Source of the DNA: Nitrospirota bacterium
Lineage (GTDB): Bacteria > JACPQY01
Length of the DNA stretch: 59,011 bases
Assembly: GCA_016180645.1 (NCBI GenBank)
Contig: JACPAV010000008.1
Coordinates: 62,001 to 121,011, forward strand
Reading direction: 5' to 3'
The notes below the pieces were generated by a model, which had not been told where the DNA came from, searched no databases, and worked only from the letters and a program-made list of their open reading frames with translations. Below are positions 1 to 27,819 of this stretch, one piece after another. Numbering within the stretch: position 1 is the first letter of the stretch; every line of letters begins with the position of its first letter. Made by a program: the position numbers and the translations under genes.

Positions 1-1043
1 CCCTCCGATACCATGTCTGACCAATTCGAGAGAATGTCGTGAGCCTCCCCGAATCGGCCTGTAGCCAGACACAGTCCTCGGAGCGAGATGAACGTATCCC
101 GCCCCCAATCGGTGAACCACGGATAGCCGGCCACAAGAGTCTTGCCTTCTCCCCGCTTGGTGGCATCCAGCCAGTCGCGGGACGGCCATGCCGTCCTGGC
201 GCCGCCTCGTCGCACCAGGTAAGAATCAGCAGACTGGTGGAGCGGCGAGGAGAAACGCTTGCGTCGGTTCAACTCCGCCTTTCGATGAGCCTCAAAGCGC
301 GACCTCGCGTCAATGGTGGCGTCCACGGATGAACCGGCCTGCTCAGCCGATAGAATCCAGATCGCCGGGCCTGCCGACAGATCCCACTTCATCACACCGG
401 GCGATCCGAGATCCTCACTGGAATCCAAGCCCCGGTCCCGCTCTTGGGCGTACAGGAAGTTGCCGTACCAGGTCGGCTCATGGCGGTACGTACCGTTCAT
501 CCGACTGACCACTCGTGGATGGACGGCATAGGGTCTCCAAGACACGTAACCTTCACCCGCCCCTGACTCAAAGTTGAACGATGGGTTGTTGTGGTGCAAC
601 GAGTGGTAGTCACGACCTGACAGGAAGGGACGGACACGAAGCCGGCCTGGCTGCTTCTTGCCAAGCACTTTCCAGGAGATGCACACGGATTGTGTCTCGT
701 GCGGCACGAACAGCTCGTGCAGGAGGCGCGTCCCGTTCTCAAACTGGAACGTCCATGTGGGCCACGGGTCGGGCTTGAAGGAATCGATTCGGGTCATTCC
801 ATCCGGATGCACCACCTCCGGCAGGTATCGCTGGGAGGTGATCGCATAGCTGCCCTCCGGGGTGTCGACCCAGGCGTCAAACCCGTTGACGAGCACCACA
901 CGGCCGGCGGGGGGATCCGTGGCGACGAGAAGGAGGGCGTGGTAGCGGCGGCTGCGGATTCCGGAAACTGTTCCTGACGCGAACCCACCGAGGCCGTCCG
1001 CCTCCAGCCATTCCGCGTTGGGATCGAAACCAAGACCCTCCAA
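1..1043 (-). CDS. Glycogen debranching enzyme / amylo-alpha-1,6-glucosidase (GDE_N + start of GDE_C), 3' part beyond the left window edge
   Basis: Manual translation of the minus strand (not in ORF track, no stop in window): EWLEADGLGGFASGT..RRYHALL..FLSGRDYH..AGYPWFTDWGRDTFISLRGL. Probable TTG start at 1043, with an in-frame TAG just upstream. Confidence 0.88.
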   Translation of the reverse strand, partial: MEGLGFDPNAEWLEADGLGGFASGTVSGIRSRRYHALLLVATDPPAGRVVLVNGFDAWVDTPEGSYAITSQRYLPEVVHPDGMTRIDSFKPDPWPTWTFQFENGTRLLHELFVPHETQSVCISWKVLGKKQPGRLRVRPFLSGRDYHSLHHNNPSFNFESGAGEGYVSWRPYAVHPRVVSRMNGTYRHEPTWYGNFLYAQERDRGLDSSEDLGSPGVMKWDLSAGPAIWILSAEQAGSSVDATIDARSRFEAHRKAELNRRKRFSSPLHQSADSYLVRRGGARTAWPSRDWLDATKRGEGKTLVAGYPWFTDWGRDTFISLRGLCLATGRFGEAHDILSNWSDMVSE

Positions 1044-1058
1044 CAGAATGACCTATTC

Positions 1059-1116
1059 GTAGGGGGGCATCTTTAGATGCTCCTCTTATCGGGAGGGTCT
1101 AAAGACCCCCCCCTAC
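1059..1116. repeat. GTAG-tagged REP-like doublet (two hairpins, GTAG...CTAC ends)
   Basis: GTAGGGGGGCATCTTTAGATGCTCC-TCTTATC-GGGAGGGTCTAAAGACCCCCCCCTAC. Closely matches the reverse complement of 58963-59011. Confidence 0.8.
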
Positions 1117-1133
1117 CCATTCTGCCAGGGACT

Positions 1134-3815: not shown

Positions 3816-3895
3816 ATCGAAGACAATTCACTCCTAAGGTTCAAGAACTCCTGCTCGGGAACGCCATTTGCCCGAACACACTTGTCCGCGGACCA

Positions 3896-4144
3896 CTAGG
3901 CCGCGTAGTGGTGGAGCAGCTCGGAGACAAATGCCTGGTAGGGAATTCCCAGTTGCCTCGCCTTCTTCTTGATGCTCTCCAAATCCTGACGGTTCACCCG
4001 GATATTCAGGACGGCGTCCTTCTTTCGGCGCGCAATAGCCTGCGCGATGGCTTCGAACTCCGCCCGTTTCACGGGGCGGTACTCGCCCCGTACCAAGGCG
4101 CCTTCAATCGCCCTTTCACTCCGGCTCAGATTCATCCTTTTCAT
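3896..4144 (-). CDS. BrnA-like / CopG-RHH antitoxin
   Basis: 82 aa from ATG 4144, with ATGA overlap to the toxin stop; C-terminal KKDAVLNIRV..IKKKARQLGIPYQ RHH signature. Confidence 0.78.
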   Translation of the reverse strand: MKRMNLSRSERAIEGALVRGEYRPVKRAEFEAIAQAIARRKKDAVLNIRVNRQDLESIKKKARQLGIPYQAFVSELLHHYAA

Positions 4145-4401
4145 GCCAATTCTCCCTTCTTCCACATTCGCGTGTATTTCCGGCTGGGGAAAAGCGTCTT
4201 CAAGAAAACGGTCTCTCCCCTTGCCACATAGGGCACTACCCAAATGTAGCCCCCAAGTTCGAAGAGCAGGATATTCTGGTGCGAACGGCTCGGGTGCTCC
4301 TTCACGGCTACCAGCCTTGCTCGGACGATCTCCTCGAAAGAGACGCCCCGTTTTCTCTTCAGCTTTTTGCTCTTGGAAAGAGCCCACCGGACATCGGCCA
4401 T
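4141..4401 (-). CDS. brnT: BrnT-family toxin
   Basis: 86 aa; W..K.KKLK..RGVSFEEIV..VVPYV..FLKTLFPSRK pattern, directly upstream of an RHH antitoxin. Confidence 0.75.
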   Translation of the reverse strand: MADVRWALSKSKKLKRKRGVSFEEIVRARLVAVKEHPSRSHQNILLFELGGYIWVVPYVARGETVFLKTLFPSRKYTRMWKKGELA

Positions 4402-4409
4402 CTCATGGA

Positions 4410-4438
4410 GTTGTAATACAAATGTATATACTAATCAA
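4410..4438 (-). promoter_or_regulatory. Probable promoter/operator of the BrnTA pair
   Basis: AT-rich patch. Minus strand reads TTGATT-N17-TACAAC (weak -10), with inverted repeat ATACA-aa-TGTAT (4416-4427) in the spacer. Confidence 0.45.
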
Positions 4439-4722
4439 GAGGAGGGGAGCACGCTCAACAGGTCATGTCAAGCGCCAAAACCCAAAACTCAATATTCAAT
4501 TGCCCCGACGTTCTTATCTGGGGAGGGCCCCCACCGCGGGAATCGGGCATCGAGAAGAGTGGATTTCCTCGGGAGACCAACCCGAACGCTCCCTAATCGT
4601 CACACTCCATGACTCCCGAGCGCAAAAGCGACGGAGGTCGTGCTCTTGGACGATAATCACAACCGGATCGCGATCCGTCAACCGCGGCACCATGACCTGA
4701 ACGCCCGGAATACGCCGGATCG

Positions 4723-5283: not shown

Positions 5284-5384
5284 GACGGTGCCACGATAGC
5301 CAATCGGGATCTGATCCCAGCTTCTACGGAGAATCTTCGCCGCACTTCTTGCCGGTGCGCACCAAAACGGGTACTCTTGGAGCT

Positions 5385-5994: not shown

Positions 5995-6022
5995 GCACCC
6001 GCAATCGCAACCGTTGAAGGCT

Positions 6023-8676: not shown

Positions 8677-8678
8677 CA

Positions 8679-9671: not shown

Positions 9672-9702
9672 GGGTGGGCCTAGAGCTTAGCATAGATCGT
9701 TC

Positions 9703-11769: not shown

Positions 11770-11787
11770 TGGATCTCCTCGGGCCGG

Positions 11788-13038
11788 TCAGCTCAAGACC
11801 GTCCCCTTCGGAATCACCGTCAAGCCGGACTCGGTGACGAAAAACCGTTTCCGATCTTCCGCATGGTTGAACCCGATCTGCATGTTGTCCGGAATCTTCA
11901 CCCCCACGTCCGCGATGACTCGTTTCATGCGGACATAGCTCCCCACGTTCACTCCCGGCATGAGGATGGATTCCTGCACCGTCGCGAATGAATCGACCCG
12001 CACCTCGGGAAACAGAACGCTCCGGCTCACTTCGCCGCCGGCCAGAATGCAGCCCTCGGCCACCATGGAATCCAGCGCCATCCCCATTCGATTTGAATCC
12101 CCTCCTGAGAAGACAAATTTCGCCGGCGGGAGATCGAAGTGGCCGCACCGGATGGGCCAATCCTCGTTGTACAGATTGAAGTGCGGCGACACGCCGATCA
12201 GATCGAGGTTGGCATCGAAGTAGGATTCGAGCGTCCCAACATCTCTCCAGTAGGCCGTTTCCTTCCCGGAAACCCCAGGGACTTCATTCTCGTGAAAATT
12301 GTAGGCGAAAACGCGATGCTGCTCGATCATCCTTGGAATAACGACTCTCCCGAAATCATGCGACGAATCGTGGGCTTCCGCGTCTTCTTTAAGAACCTGC
12401 TTCAAGACATCGGTATTGAAAATGTAATTCCCCATTGAAGCAAGGACCTGCCCATCGCTTTCCGGATGCACATCGGCGGGCTTCTCCCGGAACTCGGTGA
12501 CGCGGCCCTCGGCATTGACGTCGAGCACGCCGTACAGGCGCGCCTCGTGAGCCGGACGCGGCACGGCCGCAATCGTCAATTCCGCCCCGGCCCCGATGTG
12601 GAACTTGAGCATCTGGCTCACGTCCATTTTGTAAATGTGATCGGCGCCGAAGATACACACGAAACGCGGGTCCTCGTTCTCCACCAGGTTCAGGTTTTGG
12701 AAAACGGCGTCCGCCGTTCCCATGAACCACCGTTCCCCCACGCGCATCTGGGCGGGCACGGGATCGATGTAGTGATTCAGGACGGAGGACAGCCGCCAGA
12801 CCTTGGAGATGTGGCGGTCGAGCGAGTCGGATTTATACTGGACCAGAACCTTAATCTTGTAGAATCCCGAATTGATGAGGTTGGAAAGGACGAAATCGAT
12901 GAGCCGGTAGCGTCCGCCGAAGTGGACTGCCGCCTTCGCGCGATCCCGGGTCAGTGGGAAGAGCCGCTCGCCTTTCCCTCCGGCCATGACGAACGTCAGC
13001 GCGTCGTCATTCTGCGGACAGACTACGCACTGGGTCAT
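11788..13038 (-). CDS. glgC: Glucose-1-phosphate adenylyltransferase
   Basis: MAGGKGERL.PLTRDRAK, GTADAV.QN, ADHIYKMD, EKP, ASMGNY, YWRDVGT. Confidence 0.95.
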   Translation of the reverse strand: MTQCVVCPQNDDALTFVMAGGKGERLFPLTRDRAKAAVHFGGRYRLIDFVLSNLINSGFYKIKVLVQYKSDSLDRHISKVWRLSSVLNHYIDPVPAQMRVGERWFMGTADAVFQNLNLVENEDPRFVCIFGADHIYKMDVSQMLKFHIGAGAELTIAAVPRPAHEARLYGVLDVNAEGRVTEFREKPADVHPESDGQVLASMGNYIFNTDVLKQVLKEDAEAHDSSHDFGRVVIPRMIEQHRVFAYNFHENEVPGVSGKETAYWRDVGTLESYFDANLDLIGVSPHFNLYNEDWPIRCGHFDLPPAKFVFSGGDSNRMGMALDSMVAEGCILAGGEVSRSVLFPEVRVDSFATVQESILMPGVNVGSYVRMKRVIADVGVKIPDNMQIGFNHAEDRKRFFVTESGLTVIPKGTVLS

Positions 13039-13365
13039 GCTCTTGACGGCCGTGCCTCCTCCCTTCGCTTATACGCTCTCAACGTCGGCGGGGTCCATGA
13101 CTCGCATCATACAAAACCGTCCGGCCCGGCGCCAATGATCGCACCCTTGAGATTCGGACGGGCTGGGTATATGGGGAAGTCATGACCAGGGATGGCACTC
13201 GCCTCGTTCTCCGGCCATGCCCGGCCGGGGCGACCGTTGCGAGCGCCGCGAGTCTCCTGCGCGTCGGCACGGCCGACCGTTCGTGAAATGTATCCCCCCC
13301 GCGGCCCGCTCCAACCGCGCATCGCCCTCTCCGCGGGGCTCCGGGGACGATGATAGGATGAGCCA

Positions 13366-15183
13366 TTGAATCCCCGCATCGCGTACTTCACGATGGAGAT
13401 CGGCGTCGATCCCGCGATTCCGACGTATGCCGGCGGACTCGGCGTCCTCGCCGGTGACACCCTGCGCGCCGCGGCCGATCTCGCTCTCCCCCTCGTAGGC
13501 GTCTCGCTCCTCCACCGAAAGGGCTACTTCCGCCAGCGGCTGGACAAGGAGGGCAATCAGACCGAAACGCCGTGCGACTGGAATCCCGAAAAAGTCTTGG
13601 AACCGCTCCCGGCAAGAGTTTCGATCGAGCTTGAAGGACGAACGGTGCGGGTCGGCGTGTGGCGGTTTCTTATCCGGGGCACGGGCGGAGGCGCGGCGCT
13701 GGAATCTTATGGTGATTCCACCCGCCGTCCCCGAAGTGGAGCGGAGGGGGTCGTTCCGGTCTACTTCCTCGATACGGACCTTCCCGAAAACACGCCATGG
13801 CACCGATCCCTCTGCGGCGCACTGTATGGAACGGATCTTCGATATCGTTTCTGCCAGGAGGCCGTGCTCGGCCTCGGGGGCGTGGCCGTCCTCCGGGCGA
13901 TCGGGCACGAGAGCATTCGGTTCTTCCACATGAATGAAGGACACTCGGCCCTCCTCACGCTTGCCCTTCTCGAAGAGCGGCTTCCGGGTCGAAGATGGGA
14001 ATCGGCCACGGAGACAGATCTCGACGCCGTACGCCGACAATGCGTCTTCACCACCCACACGCCGGTTCCCGCGGGACACGATCAGTTTCCGTGCTCGATG
14101 GTCGCCGAGGTGCTCGGCCGGGTGCGCTCGGACGCCCTCGATCGGCACGGCTGGTGCGATCGGACCCAGCTCAACATGACCCACCTGGCCCTCATGCTGT
14201 CGGACTACGTGAATGGAGTCGCCATGCGGCACGGCGAGGTCTCGCAGGATTTGTTCCCCGAGACTCCCATCGAATCGATCACGAACGGTGTGCACGCGGG
14301 GACTTGGGCCTCCCCGTCATTCGCCGCGCTCTTCGATCGCTACCTCCCCGCATGGAGAGGCGACAACTCCTACCTTCGATATGCCATCCGGATTCCACCC
14401 GCCGACATTCACCAAGCCCATGTGGAAGCGAAGGCCGCTCTCCTCGCCGAAGTGGAGCGCCGAACTCACGTCCGCCTCGATCCCAACGCCCTCACGCTCG
14501 GATTCGCCCGCCGGGCCACCGCGTACAAGCGGGCCGATCTCCTTTTCACCGATCTGAACCGGCTGAGATCCATCGCCTCCCAGCACGGCCGCCTCCAACT
14601 TGTTTTCGCGGGAAAGGCTCACCCGAATGACGAACCGGGAAAACATCTGATCCGACGGATCTTCCAGGCTTCCGCGGCCCTTTCGGAAGCGGTCCCCGTG
14701 GTGTATCTGGAAGAGTACGACATGGCGCTGGCCAAGACCGTTTGCGCAGGGGTGGACGTCTGGCTCAACACGCCCCAGCAGCCTCTCGAAGCTTCAGGCA
14801 CAAGCGGCATGAAGGCCGCGGTGAACGGCGTCCCCAGCTTGAGCGTCCTCGACGGCTGGTGGGTCGAAGGGCATGTCGAAGGCGTGACCGGATGGTCCAT
14901 CGGCGGCCATTGGGAGGACCTGAAGGTCCTCCCCTACGAAGCATCCCGTAGGGGCGAGGCATGCCTCGCCCCTACGGCTCCCTCTTCTTGGGCTCACAAC
15001 GATCGCCGCGGTGACGAGGTCCGTTCGCTCTATGACAAGCTCGAACAAACGATCCTGCCGCTCTACTTTCAGCGACCGGAGGAATTCGACCGCATCCGCC
15101 AATCCACCATTGTGGTGAATGGGTCCTTCTTCAACGCCCACCGCATGATGAACCAGTACATCCGCAACGCCTACCGGGAGTAA
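13366..15183 (+). CDS. glgP: Alpha-glucan phosphorylase, with two repeat-derived in-frame inserts
   Basis: YFTMEIG..YAGGLGVLAGD, MNEGH, FARRATAYKR, EASGTSGMK (PLP lysine). Confidence 0.93.
   Translation: MNPRIAYFTMEIGVDPAIPTYAGGLGVLAGDTLRAAADLALPLVGVSLLHRKGYFRQRLDKEGNQTETPCDWNPEKVLEPLPARVSIELEGRTVRVGVWRFLIRGTGGGAALESYGDSTRRPRSGAEGVVPVYFLDTDLPENTPWHRSLCGALYGTDLRYRFCQEAVLGLGGVAVLRAIGHESIRFFHMNEGHSALLTLALLEERLPGRRWESATETDLDAVRRQCVFTTHTPVPAGHDQFPCSMVAEVLGRVRSDALDRHGWCDRTQLNMTHLALMLSDYVNGVAMRHGEVSQDLFPETPIESITNGVHAGTWASPSFAALFDRYLPAWRGDNSYLRYAIRIPPADIHQAHVEAKAALLAEVERRTHVRLDPNALTLGFARRATAYKRADLLFTDLNRLRSIASQHGRLQLVFAGKAHPNDEPGKHLIRRIFQASAALSEAVPVVYLEEYDMALAKTVCAGVDVWLNTPQQPLEASGTSGMKAAVNGVPSLSVLDGWWVEGHVEGVTGWSIGGHWEDLKVLPYEASRRGEACLAPTAPSSWAHNDRRGDEVRSLYDKLEQTILPLYFQRPEEFDRIRQSTIVVNGSFFNAHRMMNQYIRNAYRE
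14912..14977. repeat. Two GTAG-type REP palindromes inside glgP
   Basis: GGGAGGACCT-GA-AGGTCCTCCC-CTAC (10-bp stem) followed by the perfect 32-bp palindrome CCGTAGGGGCGAGGCATGCCTCGCCCCTACGG (14946-14977). Confidence 0.9.
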
Positions 15184-15184
15184 G

Positions 15185-17029
15185 ATGGCGGACAAGATGG
15201 AGGCCCTCCGAAGGCTTGCGGAACTTCACGGTGTCCAGACCACGTACTACACGATCGAAGGCCAACGGCGCGACGCCAAGCCTGAAGTCCTCCTTGCCAT
15301 CCTGAAAGCACTCGGCGCGCCGATTCAGCGTTTGGAAGACGCTCCGGACGCCTTGCACAGATTGCTAGACGCCGCACAGCACCCCCCATCCGCACCTTCC
15401 TCCTCAAGGGGGGAAGGGATGGTAGCCGCACCCTTCATGGGTGCGTCTTCAGACGCAGGCATGAAGCCTGCGCCTACCCCCTCCCCCTCGAAGGGGGAGG
15501 GTGAGGGTGGGGGTGGGGGTGAGACCTTACAGCCCCTGAAGGCCTGGTCTCCCGGCAGCGGTGAACGCCGATGGGGGGTGTTTGTCCCGCTCTATTCTCT
15601 CCGTTCGTCGCGCAACTGGGGCGTCGGCGATTTCACCGACATTGAAAACCTTGTGGATTGGGTCGGCGGTCTCGGAGGAGGAATCGTCGGCACACTTCCC
15701 CTCCTGGCAACCTTCCTCGACGATCCCTTCGCCGCATGCCCTTACACACCGGTCAGCCGGATGTTCTGGAATGAGCTGTTCATCGATGTCGAAGGCATCC
15801 CGGAATTGGCGGACACACCGGAAGCCTCCTCGCTTGCGTCGTCAGCGGATTTCAGATCGGAAATTCGCGAGCAACGCGAAATACAGCTCGTGGACTACCG
15901 GGGTGTCATGCAACTCAAGCGGAGGGTGCTGGAGCGATTGGCCGACTCTATCTCTTCACGGCCCGGCGGCAGGCTCGATGCATTCCTCGCATTCCGCTCC
16001 GAGCACCCGAGACTGAACGACTACGCCCGATTCCGCGCGGTAGGGGAGCGGAGCCAGCAGCCTTGGAGGACATGGCCCGAGCCGGCCCGGAACGGCACTC
16101 TCACCCCGGGCGATTCCGACCCCCGCGCCGAACAATATCATGCCTATGTGCAGTGGATCGCCCACGAGCAGTTGACTTCTCTCGCGCGGCGGGCACGAAT
16201 GAAGAATGTGCTCCTCTACCTCGATTTTCCCCTGGGGGTTCATCCCGACGGCTACGACGCCTGGCGGTTCAGCGAGATGTTCGTCGAGGGTGTTTCCGTC
16301 GGCGCTCCTCCGGATCCCTTTTTCTCGAAGGGCCAGCGTTGGGGCTTCGCTCCCTTGCACCCGCAACGGCTACTCGACTCGGGGAACCGGCTGTGGTCGG
16401 ACTCCATCCGCCACCACATGGGCTGCGCGGGAATACTCCGAATCGATCACGTTATGGGTCTCCATCGCCAATTCTGGATTCCCGATGGTTTCGAAGCGAT
16501 GGACGGTGTCTACGTGCGGTATCCGAAGAGCGACCTCTATGATGCGTTGTGCCGGGAATCGCTCGCCCATGAAACGATTGTGGTGGGTGAGGACCTCGGG
16601 ACCGTTCCCGAGGAACTTCGGCCTGCCCTCCATGAGCGTGGGATTCTCCGCCTTTTCATCCTCTCGTTTGAGCAAGACCTCACCGGCGGGCGGCCGCTCC
16701 CAACGCCTCCCTTCGACTCCGTCGCCGGGCTGAACACGCACGACATCCCGCCGTTCGCCGCCCTCTGGGGTGATCGCCCGAATCGATCGGAGGCGTTGCG
16801 CCGCTGCCACGATCATCTGGCCGGCGGGCCGGCCTTCGCGACGCTCGTGAATCTCGAAGATCTATGGTTCGAAACCGAACCGCAGAACAGGCCGGGCACG
16901 ACCGACGAATTCCCCAATTGGAGGCGGAAGGCGCGAAAAACATTTGAGGAATTCTCCTCGGACGGGAGCATCATGCTGGCGTTGAAGCGAGTGGACCGGC
17001 TCCGGCGGGGAGTACCTCCGGAATCTTAA
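15185..17029 (+). CDS. malQ: 4-alpha-glucanotransferase (GH77) with a repeat-derived insert
   Basis: LYSLRS..WGVGDF, GAPPDPF, LRIDHVMG, GEDLG, THD, NRPGT..NWRRK. Confidence 0.92.
   Translation: MADKMEALRRLAELHGVQTTYYTIEGQRRDAKPEVLLAILKALGAPIQRLEDAPDALHRLLDAAQHPPSAPSSSRGEGMVAAPFMGASSDAGMKPAPTPSPSKGEGEGGGGGETLQPLKAWSPGSGERRWGVFVPLYSLRSSRNWGVGDFTDIENLVDWVGGLGGGIVGTLPLLATFLDDPFAACPYTPVSRMFWNELFIDVEGIPELADTPEASSLASSADFRSEIREQREIQLVDYRGVMQLKRRVLERLADSISSRPGGRLDAFLAFRSEHPRLNDYARFRAVGERSQQPWRTWPEPARNGTLTPGDSDPRAEQYHAYVQWIAHEQLTSLARRARMKNVLLYLDFPLGVHPDGYDAWRFSEMFVEGVSVGAPPDPFFSKGQRWGFAPLHPQRLLDSGNRLWSDSIRHHMGCAGILRIDHVMGLHRQFWIPDGFEAMDGVYVRYPKSDLYDALCRESLAHETIVVGEDLGTVPEELRPALHERGILRLFILSFEQDLTGGRPLPTPPFDSVAGLNTHDIPPFAALWGDRPNRSEALRRCHDHLAGGPAFATLVNLEDLWFETEPQNRPGTTDEFPNWRRKARKTFEEFSSDGSIMLALKRVDRLRRGVPPES
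15380..15522. repeat. Composite palindromic repeat inside malQ: C/G-rich hairpin arms flanking a GTAG doublet (15422-15477)
   Basis: CCTTCCTCC-TCAA-GGGGGGAAGG, then GTAGCCGCACCC..GGGTGCG-TCTTCAGA-CGCAGGC..GCCTGCGCCTAC, then CCCTCCCCCT-CGA-AGGGGGAGGG-TGAGGGTGGGGGTG. Confidence 0.85.
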
Positions 17030-17031
17030 TC

Positions 17032-18957
17032 ATGTTCACCGTTTCCTCCGCGCTGACCGATCTGGATCTCCACCTTTTCAACGAGGGGACGCACGGCCGC
17101 CTTTATCGCAAGCTCGGAGCCCATTCGATCAATCCCCGGCCGGACTCCGGAGTGCGCTTTGCCATATGGGCACCCGCCGCGGAAAGCGTCTCCGTGATCG
17201 GCTCGTTCAATCAGTGGAAACCGAACGTCCATCCGCTGTCCGCGAAGGGAAGCTCCGGAATATGGGAGGGCACGGCGGAAAAAGCCCAGAAGGGCGATTT
17301 GTATAAGTTCCACGTTGTGCCCAGGGGCGGCGTCGCACGTTTCGACAAGACCGATCCCTTCTCGTTCTTCACGGAGCAGCCGCCGAAAACGGCCTCGATC
17401 ATCTGGAATCTCGACTACTCGTGGGGGGACGGCGAGTGGATGCACGGCCGTGGGGAACGAACCACCCGCTCCAAGCCGGTCTCCATCTACGAAGTTCACC
17501 TCGGCTCGTGGAAACGCGTGGCGGGCGAAGGTCATCGATCCCTCTCCTACCGGGAGGCCGCGGCCCAACTCTCCGATTACGTGAAGGACACCGGCTTCAC
17601 TCACGTCGAATTCCTCCCTCTCATGGAGCACCCCTTTTTTGGTTCATGGGGCTACCAGACCACCGGGTACTTCGCGCCGAGCAGCTACTACGGAACGCCG
17701 CAGGATCTGATGTTCCTGATCGATACCCTCCATCGCAACGGGATCGGCGTCATCCTGGACTGGGTCCCCTCGCATTTTCCCACGGATCCCCACAGCCTCG
17801 GAGAGTTCGACGGAACCCACCTGTACGAACACGCCGATCCCCGACAGGGCGTTCACCCGGATTGGAACAGCTACGTCTTCAATTACGGCCGGCATGAAGT
17901 CCGGAGTTTCCTCCTGAGCAGCGCCATCTTCTGGCTCGACCTCTATCATGCCGACGGCCTTCGTGTGGATGCCGTCGCCTCCATGCTCTACCGGGACTAT
18001 TCGCGCAAAGACGGCGAATGGATTCCCCATCCCACGGGAGGCAGGGAAGACACCGACGCCATCGACTTCCTGCGCCGTCTCAACGAGACCGTCTATCAGG
18101 AGTATCCGGATGTCCAGATGATCGCCGAGGAGTCCACGGCCTGGCCCGCGGTATCGCACCCCACAAACACAGGCGGGCTCGGCTTCGGCTACAAGTGGGA
18201 CATGGGATGGATGAACGACACCCTGCGCTACTTTTCGCAGGATCCCGTCCATCGCAAGCATCACCACCCAAAGCTCACCTTCCGCCAACTGTACTCCCAC
18301 TCCGAGAATTTCGTGCTGCCGCTGTCGCACGACGAAGTGACCCACGGAAAGGGTTCGCTCCTCGGGAAAATGCCCGGGGATGACTGGCAGAAATTCGCCA
18401 ATCTTCGCCTCCTTCTCGCGTGGCAGTTCGCGCAGCCCGGCAAGAAACTCCTGTTCATGGGCGGCGAAATCGGTCAGCGAAGCGAATGGAATCACGACGG
18501 AAGCATCGAATGGCCACTCCTCCAACACGCACCCCACGCCGGCATCGGGAAGTGGGTCCGGGACCTCAATCGAATCTATGTAACCTCGCCCGCGCTCCAT
18601 GCCCTCGACTGCGACCCCGCGGGATTCGAATGGATTGAATGCAATGACGCTTCCTCCAGCGTGTTGGCTTTTCTCCGCCGCTCCGCTGATCCGGGAGAGA
18701 CCGTGCTCGCCGCCTTCAACTTCACGCCTGTGGTGCGCACCTCATTCCGGGTGGGCGTTCCCTTCGAAGGCGCCTGGCAGGAAACGCTGAACAGCGACTC
18801 CACACTCTACGGCGGGAGCGGCCATGGAAACATGGGCCAAGTCACGGCGATGGCCCTCCCCTCCCATGGCCGGCCATTTTCCGTTGTCCTCGCCCTCCCA
18901 CCCTTGGCGGCCATCTTCCTCTCGGCCCCCGTACCCGAACACGCTCCTGTCCGATAG
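17032..18957 (+). CDS. glgB: 1,4-alpha-glucan branching enzyme
   Basis: YEVHLGSW, SWGYQ, LDWVPSHF, LRVDAVASM, AEEST, LSHDE. Confidence 0.95.
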   Translation: MFTVSSALTDLDLHLFNEGTHGRLYRKLGAHSINPRPDSGVRFAIWAPAAESVSVIGSFNQWKPNVHPLSAKGSSGIWEGTAEKAQKGDLYKFHVVPRGGVARFDKTDPFSFFTEQPPKTASIIWNLDYSWGDGEWMHGRGERTTRSKPVSIYEVHLGSWKRVAGEGHRSLSYREAAAQLSDYVKDTGFTHVEFLPLMEHPFFGSWGYQTTGYFAPSSYYGTPQDLMFLIDTLHRNGIGVILDWVPSHFPTDPHSLGEFDGTHLYEHADPRQGVHPDWNSYVFNYGRHEVRSFLLSSAIFWLDLYHADGLRVDAVASMLYRDYSRKDGEWIPHPTGGREDTDAIDFLRRLNETVYQEYPDVQMIAEESTAWPAVSHPTNTGGLGFGYKWDMGWMNDTLRYFSQDPVHRKHHHPKLTFRQLYSHSENFVLPLSHDEVTHGKGSLLGKMPGDDWQKFANLRLLLAWQFAQPGKKLLFMGGEIGQRSEWNHDGSIEWPLLQHAPHAGIGKWVRDLNRIYVTSPALHALDCDPAGFEWIECNDASSSVLAFLRRSADPGETVLAAFNFTPVVRTSFRVGVPFEGAWQETLNSDSTLYGGSGHGNMGQVTAMALPSHGRPFSVVLALPPLAAIFLSAPVPEHAPVR

Positions 18958-19013
18958 CACCGCGTTTCTTTTGACAGCCACTCCGTGTCACGGGTAGACT
19001 TCCCGTTGGGCCA

Positions 19014-19976
19014 ATGGAGATCGGACTAGTCCACATGGTGAGGCGTTACGCATGGTTCCCGATACCGGCCTTGCTGGCCTCCGCACTCGTCTTCTCCTGC
19101 GGTTCCGATGGACCGTCGTTCGAACCGCCCCCCGCTCCCGCGAGAGGTCTACAGCTCCGCATGACGCCCTTCGATATCCAATCCAATCACGAGCGGGAAA
19201 TTTTCCAGGCCCGGCGGCTCGAATCCGACGAAGACCTCTACGTCAATCGAATCGAGGTTAAGATGCCCGAGGGCAGCCACCACTTCATTCTCTATGTAGC
19301 CGATCCGGAGCGACAGGACATCAAGGAAGGGACTCGCCAGTTCTTCAATTCCGACGATCCTCTTTTCGCAGAGCTCAAGTTTGGCGCCCGCGAAGGGAGT
19401 TTCGTTCTGGGCTCCCAGGAGCCCTACCTCAACATGCAGTTTCCAGTGGGAGTGGCCTTCAGACTGCGGGCTCAGCAGTGGCTCATCTTCAATTCACATT
19501 TCATCAACCTGGACGGCTCACATCCAATTCGCGGCGAGGTGGCCTTGAACCTGCACACGATTCCGGAGTCCGACGTGCGCCATCTGGCACGGCCCATATT
19601 CGAGAACAATCCACTCATCCTCGTGCTGCCCGGCGAGACTCGCACCACCGAATATGTGTGGACACCCGACCGGGACATCCAACTCCTCTCCCTCACTTCC
19701 CACATGCACAAACGCGCGATCGATTTCACCGCCCGGCTGATTGAGGGCGGTCAGAAGGTCGATCCCCCTCTCATGTCCACCCAAACCTGGGACCATCCCG
19801 CCGTGAGATATTTCGATCCTCCCCTTCCCATCTCGGAAGGTCAGGGCGTCAATTTCTCCTGTACACACACCAACGACAAGAGTATCCCCCTCATCTTCGG
19901 CTTCACCTCGGATGACGAGATGTGCATCATGATCGGTTTCTATTACGCCGAATCCGACCGCCTCTCCCTCCACTAG
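19014..19976 (+). CDS. Copper type II (PHM/DBH-like) monooxygenase-domain lipoprotein
   Basis: Lipobox-like VFSC; SHHF, NSHF, SHMH and EMC copper-ligand pattern. True start may be ATG 19035. Confidence 0.7.
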   Translation: MEIGLVHMVRRYAWFPIPALLASALVFSCGSDGPSFEPPPAPARGLQLRMTPFDIQSNHEREIFQARRLESDEDLYVNRIEVKMPEGSHHFILYVADPERQDIKEGTRQFFNSDDPLFAELKFGAREGSFVLGSQEPYLNMQFPVGVAFRLRAQQWLIFNSHFINLDGSHPIRGEVALNLHTIPESDVRHLARPIFENNPLILVLPGETRTTEYVWTPDRDIQLLSLTSHMHKRAIDFTARLIEGGQKVDPPLMSTQTWDHPAVRYFDPPLPISEGQGVNFSCTHTNDKSIPLIFGFTSDDEMCIMIGFYYAESDRLSLH

Positions 19977-20082
19977 GCCTGACACGCCCGCCCCGCCCCT
20001 GGACTCCCGGACTAAACGACAGTAGAACTCGCCTCAGGCAGGACGGAGATCGGTCCGAACCGATCCATGCCCACGAAACCGG

Positions 20083-20676
20083 ATGGATCCAATCGAAACG
20101 ACCATATCCCCCGCGAAGGAATCTCCCAACGACCGGGAGATCATCCGCGAGGTTTTGGGTGGCCACACGCAGAGCTACGAGGCGCTCATTCGCAGATATC
20201 AGGACCGGATTTTCGGATTTTGCATGACGACACTTTCAAACCGGGAGGAGGCCGAGGAGGCCGCCCAGGAGGTTTTCGTAAAAGCGTTTCGGTCGCTCGC
20301 CCGATTCAGGGGCGACGCAGCCTTTTCGACGTGGCTCATTCGGATTGCCGTGAACGAGTGTCGCGATGCGCTCCGACGGCGGTCCCGCCGCAGGGAGCTT
20401 TCCCTGGAGGAGCTGCAAGACAAATACGGAGAACAGGCCCGCACACTTTTTCTCGACCCGGCCGGGGAAGCCGACTCGGAGATGGCCGACCTCGTGGATC
20501 AACTCCTTTCATCTCTCCGGCCCGAGGAGCGAACCCTACTCGTCCTCCGCGAACGCGAAGGGCACAGCTACACCGAAATCGCGGCGATCCTCGGCTGCTC
20601 CGTCGATGCCGTGAAAGCCCGACTTCGCCGCGCCCGCCAGTCCCTGCGCGAGATGGCGCGACACTTTTCACCCTGA
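20083..20676 (+). CDS. ECF sigma-70 factor
   Basis: AEEAAQEVFVKA..F.GDAAFSTWL.RIA.N (region 2) and SY.EIA.ILG...VKARL.RAR (region 4). Confidence 0.92.
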   Translation: MDPIETTISPAKESPNDREIIREVLGGHTQSYEALIRRYQDRIFGFCMTTLSNREEAEEAAQEVFVKAFRSLARFRGDAAFSTWLIRIAVNECRDALRRRSRRRELSLEELQDKYGEQARTLFLDPAGEADSEMADLVDQLLSSLRPEERTLLVLREREGHSYTEIAAILGCSVDAVKARLRRARQSLREMARHFSP

Positions 20677-20722
20677 CTCAACGTCTAATCCTTCAGGCTC
20701 TTTTTGAAAATGCGTTGGACCG

Positions 20723-20845
20723 GTAGGCGCAGGCTTCAGCCTGCGTCCGAAGACGCACCCTAAAGGCCATGTTACATGCCGTGCCATCCGTGGCACGGCG
20801 ACATCTCATGGCCCCATACCGTCCTCGGCATGGGGGTGCGGCTAC
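20723..20845. repeat. GTAG REP doublet carrying a nested 67-nt element (20767-20833)
   Basis: Removing 69 nt restores GTAGGCGCAGGCTTCAGCCTGCG-TCCGAAGA-CGCACCCTAAAGGGTGCGGCTAC, near-identical to the reverse complement of 15422-15477. Confidence 0.88.
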
Positions 20846-20891
20846 CCGGACATCCCCTCGGAAGCGATGGGGTTTTCAAACAGAGCCTGAA

Positions 20892-21410
20892 ATGATCATG
20901 GACCACCGACAAGCTTGGGAGCTCCTCTCGCCCTATCGCGACGGCGAACTGAACAATGCCGACCAGAAGGCGGTCGCCGCCCACGTCGCCCATTGTGGAG
21001 AATGCCGATCCGAACTGGCCGCGTGGAACTCCATGGGCGCCGCCATCTTCCGTCGGCCCATGGCGGCCCCGTCCACCCATTTCTCCAGCCGTGTCATGGC
21101 GCGTTTGGCCGACCCTCCCATTCCGGTCTTCGATCCCGTTTGGCTCAGCCTGCGCCGCCCCGCTCCGCTCCGCTCCGGGGACGGCGAGCGGAATTGGGAT
21201 GCGGTCCTGCGCCGCTGGCTGATCCCTGCATTCGGCGCTGCCCTGGCCGCCGCGGCGCTGGCCCTCCTGGTGCCGGAACAAGATTCCACGGGCGCCACCG
21301 AACTCCTCCTCTTGGCCGATGCTCAGGAGGACTCCGGAACATTGGGGCCTCTCCTCGCATCAGAGATTGAAACTGATTCCTATGATGAACAGCTCTTGGA
21401 GGAACCATGA
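20892..21410 (+). CDS. Zinc-finger (HxxxCxxC) anti-sigma factor
   Basis: LSPYRDGEL..HVAHCGEC, one TM helix, downstream of the ECF sigma gene. Confidence 0.85.
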   Translation: MIMDHRQAWELLSPYRDGELNNADQKAVAAHVAHCGECRSELAAWNSMGAAIFRRPMAAPSTHFSSRVMARLADPPIPVFDPVWLSLRRPAPLRSGDGERNWDAVLRRWLIPAFGAALAAAALALLVPEQDSTGATELLLLADAQEDSGTLGPLLASEIETDSYDEQLLEEP

Positions 21411-21784
21411 GACCTTCCTGGAAAACGATCTCCGCCTCGTTGGCCGTTGGACTCCTGCTTGGCGCCGCTTTCGGATGGTGGGGGCACCGCATGCGCCTCG
21501 ATTCCTGGCGGGGCGAGCACCCCTACCAGCGCCTGCTTGAAAGATTCACTTCGAGACTCGACCTCACCCCGGAACAACAACGCCAGGTAGGCGCGATTCT
21601 GGAGGGCAAGCGCCAGAGGGTCCACGCGCTTCGGGCCGAAGTCCGCCCCCGATTCGATGACATCCGCCACACCACCGACGACGAAATCGCCCGGCTGCTC
21701 ACACCCGGACAGCGGGAACAGTTCGACACGATGAAGGCGCGGCGCGAGGAGCGTCGGCGGAAGCACCATCATCCCGACGAATAG
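21407..21784 (+). CDS. Periplasmic Spy/CpxP-like (heavy-metal sensor type) protein
   Basis: N-terminal TM segment, LDLTPEQ and LTPGQ repeats, His-rich tail. Confidence 0.75.
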   Translation: MRPSWKTISASLAVGLLLGAAFGWWGHRMRLDSWRGEHPYQRLLERFTSRLDLTPEQQRQVGAILEGKRQRVHALRAEVRPRFDDIRHTTDDEIARLLTPGQREQFDTMKARREERRRKHHHPDE

Positions 21785-21797
21785 TCGCCCCGCGTCC

Positions 21798-23051
21798 ATG
21801 TCTGTTCTGCTTGCCGTCGTTCTCATGCTCTCCCTCTCCCGGGCGGCCTCGGCGGAGTCCCTCACTTGGGACGCATGCCTGCGGGAAGCGTCCGAACGCA
21901 ACCCCGAGTTGGCCGCTGCACAGGAACGCCTCGCCGCCGCCCGCGAGCGCGCCACCGGTGCGTACAGCCCCTTCCTCCCGCAACTCTCGGCGGGCGCGGA
22001 CTGGTCCCGTGCCCGGTCTTCCGCCTCCGGTGGATCATCGGCAGCACGAAACGACGTGAGTGCGGGCCTCTCGGCCCGGCAGAATCTTTTTGCGGGCTGG
22101 AAGGATACCGCATCCCTCGGGAAGGCCCGCGCCGAACGGATGGCCGCGGAAGCCGACCTTCAGGACACCAGTTCCAGGCTCAGGCTGGACTTGGCATCGG
22201 CCTTCGCTCAGTTGTCCTTCGGCCAGGACGCTCTCCGGCTGGCCGAAACAATCCTCTCACGGAGGCAGGAAAACGTCCGGCTCGTCGAACTCCGCTTTGA
22301 AGCCGGGCGCGAGAACAAGGGATCGTATCTCCGGAGCAAGGCCGCCGGGAGTCAAGCCCGGTTCGAAGTCGCTCAAGCCGACCGCGCGCTCGGGGTGAAG
22401 CGCAGACAGTTGGCACGGATTCTTGGGCGGAACGACGCGGCCGACCTGGTCGTCTCAGGAGATGTTCCCCCGCTTCCCTCCGACCCCAATCCGGATTTCC
22501 GCGGTATCGCTGAGGATGTCCCCTCGCTTCAGCGCGCTCGCGCAGCCGTCGATTCGGCTGGAGCCGGCGTGGAGTCGGCGCGGGGCCAGCTCTTCCCCGG
22601 AGTCGACGCCCTCACCAGCTTCGCCCGCGGCGGCGACGAGTGGCCGCCCGATTCCAATCGTTGGTCCGCCGGCCTGTCCATGACCTATCCCTTCTTCCCG
22701 GGTGGAAGAACCGCCTATGATATTCGAAGCGCACGGGCCGAGGAGCGTCGCGCCGAAGCCACGCTGCGAGATACGCGTGAGCGCGCCGTGGCGGACCTGG
22801 AAGCGGCGCTGAGCCGATATCGGGACGCCGTCGAGCGCTACGGGGTCCAAAATGAATTTCTTGAGGCGGCGCGCCTCCGGGCCGAAATCGGCCGCAGCCA
22901 ATACACAAGCGGACTCTTGTCCTTCCAGGATTGGGACTTGATCGAGAATGATCTCATTTCGACGGAGAAATCATGGCTCGCCTCCAAGACGGACGTTTGG
23001 CTGGCACAGGCAGAATGGTTGAGGGCGCAAGGGAAAGGTCTGGATCGATGA
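21798..23051 (+). CDS. TolC-family outer membrane efflux protein
   Basis: Signal peptide, NPEL..A, two helical OEP repeats; lies in an operon with macA/macB. Confidence 0.88.
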   Translation: MSVLLAVVLMLSLSRAASAESLTWDACLREASERNPELAAAQERLAAARERATGAYSPFLPQLSAGADWSRARSSASGGSSAARNDVSAGLSARQNLFAGWKDTASLGKARAERMAAEADLQDTSSRLRLDLASAFAQLSFGQDALRLAETILSRRQENVRLVELRFEAGRENKGSYLRSKAAGSQARFEVAQADRALGVKRRQLARILGRNDAADLVVSGDVPPLPSDPNPDFRGIAEDVPSLQRARAAVDSAGAGVESARGQLFPGVDALTSFARGGDEWPPDSNRWSAGLSMTYPFFPGGRTAYDIRSARAEERRAEATLRDTRERAVADLEAALSRYRDAVERYGVQNEFLEAARLRAEIGRSQYTSGLLSFQDWDLIENDLISTEKSWLASKTDVWLAQAEWLRAQGKGLDR

Positions 23052-24024
23052 GAGTCAAATGGTTCATGATCCTCGCCGCGCTCGCGCTCCTGGCCGCCGG
23101 AGGCTTTTGGGCGCTTCGAAAAAAGGAGCGCAAGGCGGAAACCATCACCTACCGAACCATCCGTGTTGAGCGGGGCGACCTCCAGGTTTCCATTCTAGCT
23201 ACAGGCATCGTTCAGCCGCGCACCCGCGTCGAAATCAAACCGCCCCTCGGCGGCCGCGTGGAAGACATTCGCTTTGGAGAAGGGCAGAGCGTGCAGAAGG
23301 GGGAGGTGGTCGCGTGGATGAGTTCGGTCGAGCGCGCCGCCCTCTTGGACGCCGCCCGTGCCAAGGGACCGGAGGAATTGGCCCACTGGGAACAGCTCTA
23401 CAAACCCATGCCTCTGGTCGCGCCACTCAACGGGGTCATCATCGCGCGCAATGTCGAACCCGGCCAGAGCGTTTCGGCCCAGGACGCCGTGCTCGTCATG
23501 TCCGACCGGCTCATCGTCCAGGCCCAGGTCGACGAAACGGACATCGGGCAGGTGCGGGTCGGCCAGAGCGCCGAGATCGTCCTCGATGCGTATCCCTCCG
23601 ACCTCATTCCGGCGCAGGTCTCGCACATCGCCTACGAAGCAAGGACCGTGAACAACGTCACCATCTACGAAGTGGACATCACGCCGGGCCGCGTCCCACC
23701 CTTCATGCGGAGCGGCATGACGGCCAACGTCACCATGAAAGCCGAAGCCCGCAAGGGCGTGCTCGTGCTTCCGGCGGAGGCGATTCGGCAGGAGGATGGT
23801 CATGCCGTTGTCTCCGTGCCCGGCCCAACGCCGCGCCAACCCGGTTCGAGATCCGTCGAAACGGGCGTGACGGACGGCAAGCGCGTCGAGATCCGATCGG
23901 GGCTCGCGGAGGGCGACGTGGTTCTGATGAAAAGTTTCCGTATTCCCTCCACCGAAGGAACCAAGACCAGTCCCTTCATGCCGTGGGGCCAGCGCAAGGC
24001 CGGCGGCAAGGAGGGAAAATCGAG

Positions 24025-24028
<4 letters not shown>
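23048..24028 (+). CDS. macA: Efflux periplasmic adaptor (MacA-like)
   Basis: ATG 23048 overlaps the TolC-family stop; TM anchor, APLNG..GQSV, VDETDIGQV..GQ, GMTANV. Confidence 0.82.
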
Positions 24029-26118
<2,090 letters not shown>

Positions 26119-26181
26119 CCGGCCTCGCGTTGACCTCCGGAGGATTTCTGGATACAATCTATTCTCATTGAGGAGCACACG

Positions 26182-26508
26182 ATGATTACCATCACCGAGA
26201 AGGCAGCCGAAGAATTGAAGAAACTTCTTTCCTCCGAGGAGGAGTTGAAGCAGCCGGTCCTCCGTCTGAAAGTGGTCCCCGGCGGATGCTCAGGCTATTC
26301 GTACGCGATGGCGTTTGAAGAAGGCGCTCGAGCCAACGATGCCATTGCCGAGGTTCAGGGTGTGAAAGTGGCCATCGACCCCGACAGCCAGCCCCATCTC
26401 AAGGGCTTGCATCTGGATTTTCAGGACGGCCTCACCGACGGCGGTTTCAAGATTCAGAATCCCAACGCGAAATCGACCTGCGGCTGCGGCTCCTCGTTCC
26501 AGACTTGA
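26182..26508 (+). CDS. A-type Fe-S cluster carrier (IscA/ErpA/HesB family)
   Basis: GGCSG and NPNAKSTCGCGSSF. Confidence 0.93.
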   Translation: MITITEKAAEELKKLLSSEEELKQPVLRLKVVPGGCSGYSYAMAFEEGARANDAIAEVQGVKVAIDPDSQPHLKGLHLDFQDGLTDGGFKIQNPNAKSTCGCGSSFQT

Positions 26509-26521
26509 GTTCCAGACCTCT

Positions 26522-26574
26522 GTAGCCGCGGGCTTTAGCCCGCGCCTTCCACGCAGCCTGAAGACTGCGGCTAC
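26522..26574. repeat. GTAG REP doublet between convergent genes
   Basis: GTAGCCGCGGGC-TTTA-GCCCGCG..CGCAGCC-TGAA-GACTGCGGCTAC. Confidence 0.85.
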
Positions 26575-26599
26575 CCCTGATTGGAAGCCGCCCGCTTCT

Positions 26600-27199
26600 C
26601 TAGCTTGCGTTCCCGCTGCGGATCAGCGACATGAATTCATTGCGGGTGCGTTCGTCCTTCTTGAAGACCCCCATCATCGAATTCGTCACCATCTTCGCAT
26701 TCGCTTTCTTCACTCCCCGCATCGTCATGCAGAGATGCTCCGCCTCCATGCTCACCGCCGTGCCTTGCGGTTTCAGCGCGGTGTTCACGAAATCGGCGAT
26801 CTGTGACGTCAGCCGCTCCTGAATTTGGACGCGGCGCGAGTAGGCCTCCACAATCCTCGGAATCTTGCTGAGGCCGATAATCCGCCCCGATGGAATGTAG
26901 GCGATATGGCAGCGTCCAAAGAACGGCAGAAGATGATGCTCGCATAGGCTGTAAAACTCGATGCCCTTGACCACCACCATCTCATCGTACTGCGACTCGA
27001 ATAACGCTCCGTTGATCAGGGCTTCGGGCGTGACGGAATAGCCGGCCGTCAGCTCCTTGTACATGCGGGCGATGCGATCCGGAGTTTTGCGCAGTCCCTC
27101 CCGGCCGGGATCCTCCCCGACGGCCTTCAGGAGTTCGACGACAGCCGATTGAATGATCCCGTTCGAGCTGTGACCCGTAGCTTGTTTTTCTTCAGCCAA
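26600..27199 (-). CDS. folE: GTP cyclohydrolase I
   Basis: REGL.KTP.R, CEHH, GLSK, QERLT, HLCM.MRG. Probable TTG start at 27199 after GGAGG (track start 27223). Confidence 0.93.
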   Translation of the reverse strand: MAEEKQATGHSSNGIIQSAVVELLKAVGEDPGREGLRKTPDRIARMYKELTAGYSVTPEALINGALFESQYDEMVVVKGIEFYSLCEHHLLPFFGRCHIAYIPSGRIIGLSKIPRIVEAYSRRVQIQERLTSQIADFVNTALKPQGTAVSMEAEHLCMTMRGVKKANAKMVTNSMMGVFKKDERTRNEFMSLIRSGNAS

Positions 27200-27306
27200 T
27201 GGAACCTCCCACGCAATCCCCAATCCACGCTGGGACGTATTGCGAGACCGCGATGATCCCGCTTTTGGGTTGGACTGTCAAACTCCCGGTCTCCGACGTG
27301 GTCCAT

Positions 27307-27819
27307 TCACACGTCGAAGACCACGAACGCTTTCCAGCATGGCCGCCCTTGCCGCCGGATTCGGCTGATCGAGAGGCCGTGGAGTGTCACCGCTTTTATT
27401 TCATCCTTCAGTTCGTGGCGTGCCGGGTCAAACCGTTCGCCTTCTATAACCGCGTTCAGAACCAGCCGTTGTACCTGTTCAGCCCCCTCACCCTCTCCCG
27501 CCAGGGGAGAGGGAGAAGATTTTCCCCTCACCCTCACTGGTTTGGCGCGATTCACCGATACTCCGACTCTTCGACCCAGCCACCCTCCGGCCTGCTGCCG
27601 GTAGTGGACCTCCCGAAGTAGCTGATAAAGCAGATCTACCGGCGATGACGCCCGCACCTTCAATCGCCACGTCCGCCGAGGTCTGATCGTATTCGGAGTT
27701 GTAATAAGGTCGAAATAAGCGAGAATCGCGTTCCGATACAGCGCTCTCAGAGTAGCTCCATAAACCTCGATGGCTAGATCCGCCGTATGTTCAACCTGCC
27801 GGTAGTCAGGCTTCTTCAC
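27307..27819 (-). CDS. Archease with a repeat-derived insert
   Basis: EHTAD N-terminal motif, EIKAVTLHGL, VVFDV C-terminus. Confidence 0.88.
   Translation of the reverse strand: MKKPDYRQVEHTADLAIEVYGATLRALYRNAILAYFDLITTPNTIRPRRTWRLKVRASSPVDLLYQLLREVHYRQQAGGWLGRRVGVSVNRAKPVRVRGKSSPSPLAGEGEGAEQVQRLVLNAVIEGERFDPARHELKDEIKAVTLHGLSISRIRRQGRPCWKAFVVFDV
27483..27535. repeat. CCCTCACCC/CCCTCTCCC-type hairpin repeat inside the archease gene
   Basis: CCCCTCA-CCCTCTCCC-GCCAG-GGGAGAGGG, then a second CCCCTCACCCTC. Confidence 0.75.

Follow-up and report, generated by a model that had tools for sequence, protein, structure and literature searches.

Repetitive extragenic palindromic (REP) elements act on messenger RNA (mRNA) stability and translation, and their pairing with REP-associated tyrosine transposases (RAYTs) was reportedly treated by Nunvar in 2010 and by Ton-Hoang in 2012. 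Rickettsia palindromic elements (RPE), said to have been described by Ogata et al. in 2000, include the RPE-1 type, which is about 150 bp long, has a conserved peptide and is not known to have a transposase. In the passages of the sources compared here, REP elements, their inverted doublets (REPINs) and RAYTs are well described (Bertels & Rainey 2011, PMC3116915), Rickettsia palindromic repeats lie in frame inside genes (review, PMC10969869), and some insertion sequences (IS1397, ISPpu9/10 and others) target REPs (Tobes & Pareja 2006, PMC1525189). GTAG/CGTC REPs and dimers were found in frame in known genes, with 20 to 30 amino acids (aa) or more added, by Di Nocera, De Gregorio & Rocco 2013 (PMC3733652); the compared passages of that paper state that some genes were struck twice, that N-terminal cases may be extragenic and that linkers and loops are tolerant, and its Additional file 3 names Opitutus terrae about 70 times (the richest) and R. 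conorii 28 times. Here, we report seven in-frame repeat copies within 28 kb of a 59,011-nucleotide (nt) stretch (the window; positions 62001 to 121011 of contig C44) from a 4.7-Mb, 65-contig, 97% complete Nitrospirota genome (G000). They lie in the genes for a glycogen debranching enzyme, an alpha-glucan phosphorylase (glgP, two copies), a 4-alpha-glucanotransferase (malQ), an anti-sigma factor, a MacB-type transporter and archease.

We consider it very probable (about 0.85) that short palindromic mobile repeats of several families have colonised this genome, and that the in-frame copies, sitting in tolerant loops and linkers, are those that survived selection. As in the cases of Di Nocera et al., GTAG REPs are found in frame within open reading frames (ORFs) whose homologues are without the segment (second glgP insert, malQ, MacB). 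Unlike those cases, the phylum is Nitrospirota, which is not among the passages of that paper compared; the hosts are metabolic enzymes and giant surface proteins, whereas in those passages they are mainly repair genes; and there are additional, non-GTAG intragenic families, for example the one termed F4 below. With RPE, the likeness is one of behaviour only (palindromes in frame in unrelated housekeeping genes, giving extra peptide at tolerant sites), and the main families here differ in having cognate RAYTs and mostly intergenic copies. The literature searches turned up no account of such inserts from Nitrospirota; one REP paper merely tabulates three Nitrospirota genomes. Because intragenic GTAG REPs are in print (PMC3733652), the phenomenon is less novel than was implied by an earlier note, which had been made from the letters of the window alone. 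What is new is a dense Nitrospirota case of something already in print for Opitutus, Rickettsia and others, and no new kind of biology. The case suggests that REP-type elements, by definition "extragenic", can add sizeable peptides to core enzymes of a free-living, deep-branching bacterium, and it ties the phenomenon to identifiable transposases within the same genome.

Seven repeat segments in frame in conserved genes

Copy numbers were taken from BLAST of the window against its own genome and are given as matches elsewhere. All seven segments are multicopy. In 7/7 cases alignment to orthologues, the check proposed in the earlier note, showed the insert to coincide with a gap, either in homologues or in the orthologue from the sister genus. 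Homology picks up again in an unchanged frame after every insert, and none introduces a stop. Coding copies are 92 to 99% identical to dozens of intergenic copies, and the inserts are located between Pfam domains or in linkers. The earlier count of seven coding repeats in 28 kb is upheld in this respect, as is the view that multiple families add peptide segments to intact conserved genes (alignments of glgP, malQ, the debranching enzyme, archease and the anti-sigma factor); the hairpin character ascribed to all of them is taken up below.

The glycogen debranching enzyme gene (Pfam GDE_N and GDE_C; positions 3 to 1043, minus strand) is truncated by the window start, the full gene being C44:61010-63043. 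An in-frame repeat of family F7 at 151 to 206 (minus strand) adds 18 aa (GGARTAWPSRDWLDATKR); it has 18 BLAST matches with identities of up to 96%, and the F7 profile matches 145 to 209 (E = 7e-13). An exact 18-residue gap stands at its position in 12/12 homologues (58 to 63% identity). The insert is placed between the two Pfam domains, ten residues ahead of a conserved AGYPWFTDWGRD stretch, and its predicted fold is weak (z = -1.07 against shuffled sequences, as for all z values here).

The short-type glgP gene (13366 to 15183, plus strand; Pfam, homologues) hosts two inserts. At residues 108 to 126, a 19-aa segment is encoded by a minus-strand F4 repeat (13692 to 13760; nhmmer E = 4.3e-11); BLAST gave just two matches to 13680 to 13760, and the repeat was delimited with a profile built from 65 F4 islands. 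The segment is a gap in 16/16 homologues from many phyla. The second insert (14910 to 14977, plus strand; about 26 aa) comprises two GTAG REP hairpins, an F5-type REP and a perfect 32-nt palindrome, with 40 BLAST matches, a 100% complementary inverted repeat (I3) and a strong predicted fold (z = -7.90); the same 16/16 homologues show an interrupted gap of about 26 residues here. A further F4 copy (13318 to 13385, plus strand; nhmmer E = 7.8e-09) overlaps the start region of the gene. Structural placement was confined to an AlphaFold model of glgP (17 sequences, mean predicted local distance difference test [pLDDT] 74, predicted TM score [pTM] 0.68), with exposure judged from pLDDT and strand context. 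In that model, pLDDT falls below 50 at residues 107 to 125, between strands of blocks scoring 95 to 96, and the second insert (residues 519 to 545) is low too.

In malQ (glycoside hydrolase family GH77 by Pfam; 15185 to 17029, plus strand), residues 65 to 111 are encoded by a 140-nt composite (15377 to 15516, plus strand) of an F1 REPIN, two flanking G/C hairpins and outer inverted repeats. The composite has 106 BLAST matches with identities of up to 94.7%, one of which covers all 140 nt at 92%, and folds well (z = -5.99); its peptide recurs in further long open frames across the genome. The 47 aa are missing from the nearest homologue (P0122), in which the N-terminal helix region is followed directly by the GH77 domain, and the insert site is where longer homologues bear a whole additional domain. 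This N-terminal beta-sandwich domain (PF21226) is present in most of the malQ homologues listed (about 700 aa) and is lacking in the window protein and in its nearest homologues P0122 and P0239; the repeat occupies the site of the loss. Since the genome of a sister genus (G001) is without short-type glgP and malQ, the inserts in both genes are comparable only with distant homologues (about 50 to 65% identity).

For three other host genes, G001 provides a closer comparison, and repeat content differs between the two genera at 4/4 compared loci: archease, the anti-sigma factor, the gap between sigma and anti-sigma genes, and the MacB linker. The anti-sigma factor gene (zf-HC2 by Pfam, G001 orthologue; 20892 to 21410, plus strand) carries an in-frame F4 repeat at 21148 to 21217 (plus strand; nhmmer E = 1.9e-11; about 19 aa), and the stretch 21152 to 21194 has 16 BLAST matches. 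The G001 orthologue is about 19 residues shorter at this copy (gaps of 16, 1 and 1) and also starts 2 residues later. At the 5' end of the gene a correction applies: the repeat there is intergenic, and the coding insert is the F4 copy. The 5' repeat is a non-coding composite between the extracytoplasmic function (ECF) sigma and anti-sigma genes (20695 to 20886), an F1 REPIN with the element F3 nested in its second hairpin (110 BLAST matches to 20695 to 20846; z = -7.91 for the composite). An ORF starting at 20769 would translate it, and the first residue of the orthologue aligns with position 20898; the gap between the two genes is 215 nt in G000 and 27 nt in the sister genus.

The MacB-type fused ABC transporter gene (24025 to 26118, plus strand; Pfam, PDB comparison) contains, in the linker between nucleotide-binding domain (NBD) and first transmembrane helix (TM1), an F1 REPIN with the 68-nt F3 nested in its first hairpin (24718 to 24846, plus strand; 129 nt); the nesting accounts for the insert length of 43 codons. 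The stretch 24725 to 24846 has 50 BLAST matches with identities of up to 98.9% (z = -4.93), and the linker is 70 residues long, compared with 20 in chain 5lil_A. The G001 orthologue (compared over L046:2145-2370) is 80% identical outside the linker and has an F6-type repeat inside it; this repeat matches five further stretches of G001 and about twenty of G000. The presence of different repeat families in this one linker (window 24690 to 24900) points to a permissive site struck independently.

The archease gene (PF01951, E = 2.8e-32) is on the minus strand at 27307 to 27819, a correction to the earlier note; the plus-strand ORF at 27199 to 27621 was considered and rejected, being without a Pfam match. 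Its in-frame module at 27480 to 27535 (minus strand; about 23 aa; found by genome pattern scan) consists of CCCTCTCCC-loop-GGGAGAGGG plus TGAGGGGG. The pattern (CCCTCYCCC-loop-GGGRGAGGG) has 62 genome matches, counting both strands, and the segment has 2 BLAST matches; the same type of CCCTC module makes up one flank of the malQ composite. The protein's 165 residues cover 136 profile positions, the insert is a gap against chain 4n2p_A, and the G001 orthologue is 23 residues shorter. The fold is weak (z = -1.24).

Repeat families and RAYT genes across the genome

Genome self-comparison yielded 1035 repeat islands with at least three other copies, 987 of which are no longer than 400 nt and make up 1.7% of the genome. 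F1 (GGTAGCCGC... doublet, about 60 nt) and F2 (GTAGGGGAG... doublet, 64 nt; 104 nt when the outer inverted repeats are included) are the main GTAG-tagged families; k-mer consensus lengths of the REPIN doublets are 60 and 104 nt, and the longer forms of both families carry outer inverted repeats. F5 and a 28-nt perfect palindrome are additional GTAG types. A hairpin accompanies 849/20,281 GTAG sites (4.2%), where roughly 90 would be expected; for six control tetramers the share is 0.42 to 0.53%.

Genes were called with a crude hexamer gene finder of our own (3881 genes, 89.7% coding), which recovers the Pfam-supported genes of the window. Among 669 recurrent GTAG hairpins, 525 are intergenic, 26 are at gene edges and 118 are inside genes, although non-coding DNA is only about 10% of the genome by these calls. 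The earlier note's description of REPs as mostly extragenic is borne out in number, while in-frame intragenic GTAG REPs have already been described in several species. F1 alone is less extragenic (88/147 islands), and 48/147 of its islands lie 90 nt or deeper within a gene. Of all islands of up to 300 nt (n = 970), genes contain 341, gene edges account for 155 and the other 474 are intergenic, from which it follows that intergenic DNA is strongly preferred and that the inside class is still large; part of that class consists of ordinary paralogous protein repeats (RCC1 units, F11/F12/F16/F19). When the count is confined to the palindromic families F1 to F7 and F10, with at least 90 nt of gene on each side, it is 135/577 islands. 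The F4 profile has 61/176 matches inside genes and 54/176 overlapping a gene end. A role of F4 as a mobile donor of ribosome sites or start codons was considered and dropped (only nine copies on the same strand reach across a called start, and their positions are scattered).

The 118 intragenic GTAG hairpins are spread over 52 genes. Merged, they amount to 72 events, of which 52 are robust, being flanked on either side by 50 or more codons with a positive coding score. A Pfam scan covered 40 of the 52 host genes (omitted were three ORFs below 130 aa, three window genes and six genes on contigs C54 to C65), and 38/40 have Pfam domains at E of 1e-5 or better. Ten hosts are giant RCC1-repeat proteins, others are FG-GAP, NHL, Ig-like or C25-peptidase giants, and the remainder are enzymes and signalling proteins (PCMT, CheA twice, CheW, GcvT, Ppx/GppA, a flavoprotein); hairpins in SucC, GcvP, UvrB (11 codons from its start), MnmE, pol III delta' and others are among the terminal, doubtful events. 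At least ten giants (1300 to 2400 aa; RCC1, Ig-like and MopE-type motifs) with one to seven GTAG hairpins each are the commonest intragenic-REP hosts, located on contigs C10, C13, C20, C25 and C28 and at C44:103-4026.

RAYT candidates were sought as PF01797 loci, of which the genome has seven, none on contig C44, in line with the earlier note, which saw no mobilising enzyme in the window. Two of the ORFs (156 and 157 aa) pass the NCBIfam model NF047646, "REP-associated tyrosine transposase" (100.5 and 88 bits, cut-off 80), and both carry H-hydrophobic-H and Y..NPV motifs, read by eye from the sequence. One (C25:35020-35427) has F2 REPs on both flanks and the other (C25:105863-106204) has F1 REPs on both flanks. 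Each gene flanked by its own family is the classical REPtron layout, which marks F1 and F2 as REP/REPIN systems with their own RAYTs and agrees with the association of GTAG families with RAYTs that the earlier note had stated. By this arrangement, we infer that the two RAYTs move F1 and F2 copies. A longer Y1-transposase-like gene (316 aa; C48:53629-54576) is flanked by inverted 27- to 30-nt F18 copies, a layout flanked by terminal inverted repeats (TIRs) rather than by REPs, and the four further PF01797 loci have no flanking repeats. F4, F7 and the CCCTC module have no GTAG in their consensus, and none of them flanks the seven PF01797 loci. The other movers put forward in the earlier note did not hold: DUF559 was not found in the genome (97% complete), and the five GIY-YIG genes have no repeats within 1.2 kb.

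Like REP/REPIN-RAYT systems, the GTAG families combine a GTAG tag with a stem-loop, hundreds of copies, inverted doublets and, for each of two families, a RAYT flanked by that family. Unlike classical ones, they have a far larger intragenic share (F1, as given above), and they frequently form composites that include additional hairpins, outer inverted repeats and a nested element. A degenerate pattern for the 24-nt F1 REP hairpin has at least 128 exact-match stretches in species-representative genomes; among the matches listed (L093 to L172) are Planctomycetota, Nitrospirota, Ignavibacteria, Acidobacteria, Bacteroidota, Desulfobacterota-type bacteria, Omnitrophota and others, a dozen or so phyla. 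F1 therefore appears to be a very widely shared REP type, through either horizontal spread or RAYT constraint. The sister genus still holds the family (32 matches to an F1 copy in G001).

The nested element F3 is 68 nt long with a hairpin of its own, and its window copies (24733 to 24800 and 20765 to 20835) show compensatory changes. For 31 of 50 full-length copies in the genome, the flanks pair over at least 6 bp across the junction, compared with 19/2000 random sites, and GTAG or CTAC stands within 24 nt of 40/50 copies. The junction always comes after GGC, in REPs of several families. F3 looks like a small non-coding element that targets REP loops; it resembles REP-targeting insertion sequences in that it occupies REP hairpins, at one constant position behind GGC, and differs from them in being 68 nt long and non-coding rather than bearing a transposase.

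Origin of the inserts and its alternatives

Under the colonisation reading, F1 and F2 REPINs would each be served by their own RAYT, an HUH/Y1 single-strand DNA transposase encoded elsewhere in the genome, and the non-GTAG families would be scattered by some mover or movers. New copies would insert irrespective of genes; those that broke a frame, brought a stop or hit an essential part would be lost together with their carriers through purifying selection, and the survivors inside genes would be those in frame, free of stops and in linkers or loops, where they would be translated and tolerated as 18 to 47 extra residues. The REPtron layout and the near-identity of copies argue for the RAYT-driven copying step, and the intact frames (7/7) together with the placement of the inserts argue for the selection filter.

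Several observations weigh on the other side. No enzyme is tied to F4, F7 or the archease module. Four of the seven window inserts (debranching enzyme, first glgP insert, anti-sigma factor, archease) fold like shuffled sequences (z = -0.3 to -1.6), which makes the label "palindromic" weak for F4, F7 and the archease module; the hairpins described in the earlier note are real for the second glgP insert, malQ and MacB (z = -4.9 to -7.9) and not for these four. The glgP model is also low at non-insert residues 283 to 309 and 589 to 605 and at the C terminus, so that structure mapping, another check from the earlier note, finds the first insert to be a low-confidence loop between confident strands but low pLDDT not to be unique to inserts. 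The intragenic counts rest on crude hexamer gene calls, and 20/72 intragenic GTAG events stand some 40 codons or less from the end of a gene, where they may be extragenic, tails or miscalled starts. When stop-free frames were scored in intergenic copies and compared with the share of intragenic copies across 16 families, the correlation had the expected direction and was not significant (rho = 0.41, p = 0.12). Contigs of four DNA runs from one study, over 13000 to 28000, hold no insert-free allele, though contigs drop rare variants, and no RNA run is listed for the glgP-malQ stretch, which is evidence neither way. The lack of GTAG in the stop-giving phase inside genes (0/67) was discarded as a sign of selection; it proves nothing, because it follows from the way ORFs are called.

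Under domestication, the inserts would have been kept for their usefulness, either as functional loops of the protein or because their RNA structure tunes how the glycogen operon is expressed. In its favour, five inserts are grouped in four genes belonging to a single metabolic cluster, a density far above that of the genome as a whole; REPs are known to affect mRNA stability and translation, and two genera bear different repeats in the same MacB linker. Repeated strikes on a linker are, however, expected from tolerance alone, the inserts are nearly the same in sequence as intergenic copies and show no sign of having evolved separately, the sister-genus archease and anti-sigma orthologues are without inserts, and the same elements recur across unrelated proteins, of which many are giant proteins of the surface. 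We hold domestication to be improbable, if the least improbable of the alternatives. It is less probable still that the host genes are pseudogenes or were disabled by the inserts, their open frames being leftovers. Strong mRNA hairpins could hamper translation and, as said, an RNA run is lacking for the glgP-malQ stretch, but all seven inserts keep the frame without a stop, coding scores are high on both sides, the invariant columns of the families are retained in the window proteins, and the glycogen cluster that carries five inserts is otherwise intact in its genes.

Two further explanations are barely credible. One is misassembly, in which repeats were joined into genes of a metagenome-assembled genome; the 65-contig assembly derives from groundwater metagenomes, and short-read contigs break at repeats. 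Misjoins would not yield seven of seven in-frame, stop-free inserts with homology resuming exactly, and run contigs bridge gene-repeat junctions without differences at 13000 to 14973, 14950 to 15434 and 24784 to 28000 (including the archease insert), a support that is not independent because three of the runs may be the source of the assembly. Joints in the run contigs, which break at repeats, lead to other repeat copies, and none removes an insert exactly. The other is that the extra segments are ordinary lineage-specific low-complexity loops resembling repeats by chance, which would suit the G+C-rich copies of F4, F7 and the archease module that fold no better than shuffled sequences. BLAST and profile E-values of 1e-8 to 1e-67, with tens of copies each, stand against it, as do further copies in intergenic DNA; the copy counts refute chance likeness for practical purposes.

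Beyond colonisation by repeats as such, we advance only tentatively, and with more doubt than confidence, that this Nitrospirota lineage is the densest case yet of palindrome-decorated proteins, with a layered repeat ecology: REPINs driven by RAYTs, F3 entering hairpin loops after GGC and riding into genes, and enzyme-less F4 and F7 as often inside as between genes. If so, and given that sister genera bear different repeats in one protein linker, the genome would amount to a natural insertion scan of which loops of conserved enzymes tolerate 20 to 50 extra residues. The inserts in the glycogen enzymes, MacB and archease form a natural collection of probably tolerated insertion sites, and for annotation, odd loops, wrong start codons and "hypothetical" peptides may be repeat-derived.

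Intergenic repeats and gene context of the window

The intergenic GTAG copies reported in the earlier note at 1059, 20722, 26522 and 58963 were all confirmed, and the GTAG...CTAC doublets at 1059 to 1116 and 26522 to 26574 are inverted REP pairs. The first belongs to an F2 REPIN with outer inverted repeats (1030 to 1125; 133 BLAST matches, inverted repeat I1, z = -5.05) and the second to an F1 REPIN (26522 to 26576; 12 BLAST matches, I2, z = -3.69). A lone intergenic F1-type REP hairpin lies at 37027 to 37051 (23 BLAST matches), and an intergenic F2 REPIN at 58911 to 59011 is truncated by the window end (165 BLAST matches to 58900 to 59011, identities of up to 99%). None of the repeats matches an Rfam family.

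By Pfam, a glycogen gene cluster occupies the first 19 kb of the window and comprises the debranching enzyme, a GH63-like enzyme, PFK, glycogen synthase, a GalT-like protein, GH57, glgC, glgP, malQ and glgB. On its 3' side are the ECF sigma/anti-sigma pair, a TolC-HlyD-MacB export set, folE, archease (minus strand) and a deacetylase. The runs that contain the window DNA are groundwater metagenomes. The sole Rfam match within the window is a transfer RNA (tRNA) gene at 45959 to 46029 (minus strand), and direct repeats of 42 nt (45992/53940) and 31 nt (46079/53774) point to a possible integrated element with a tRNA-derived repeat at its borders.

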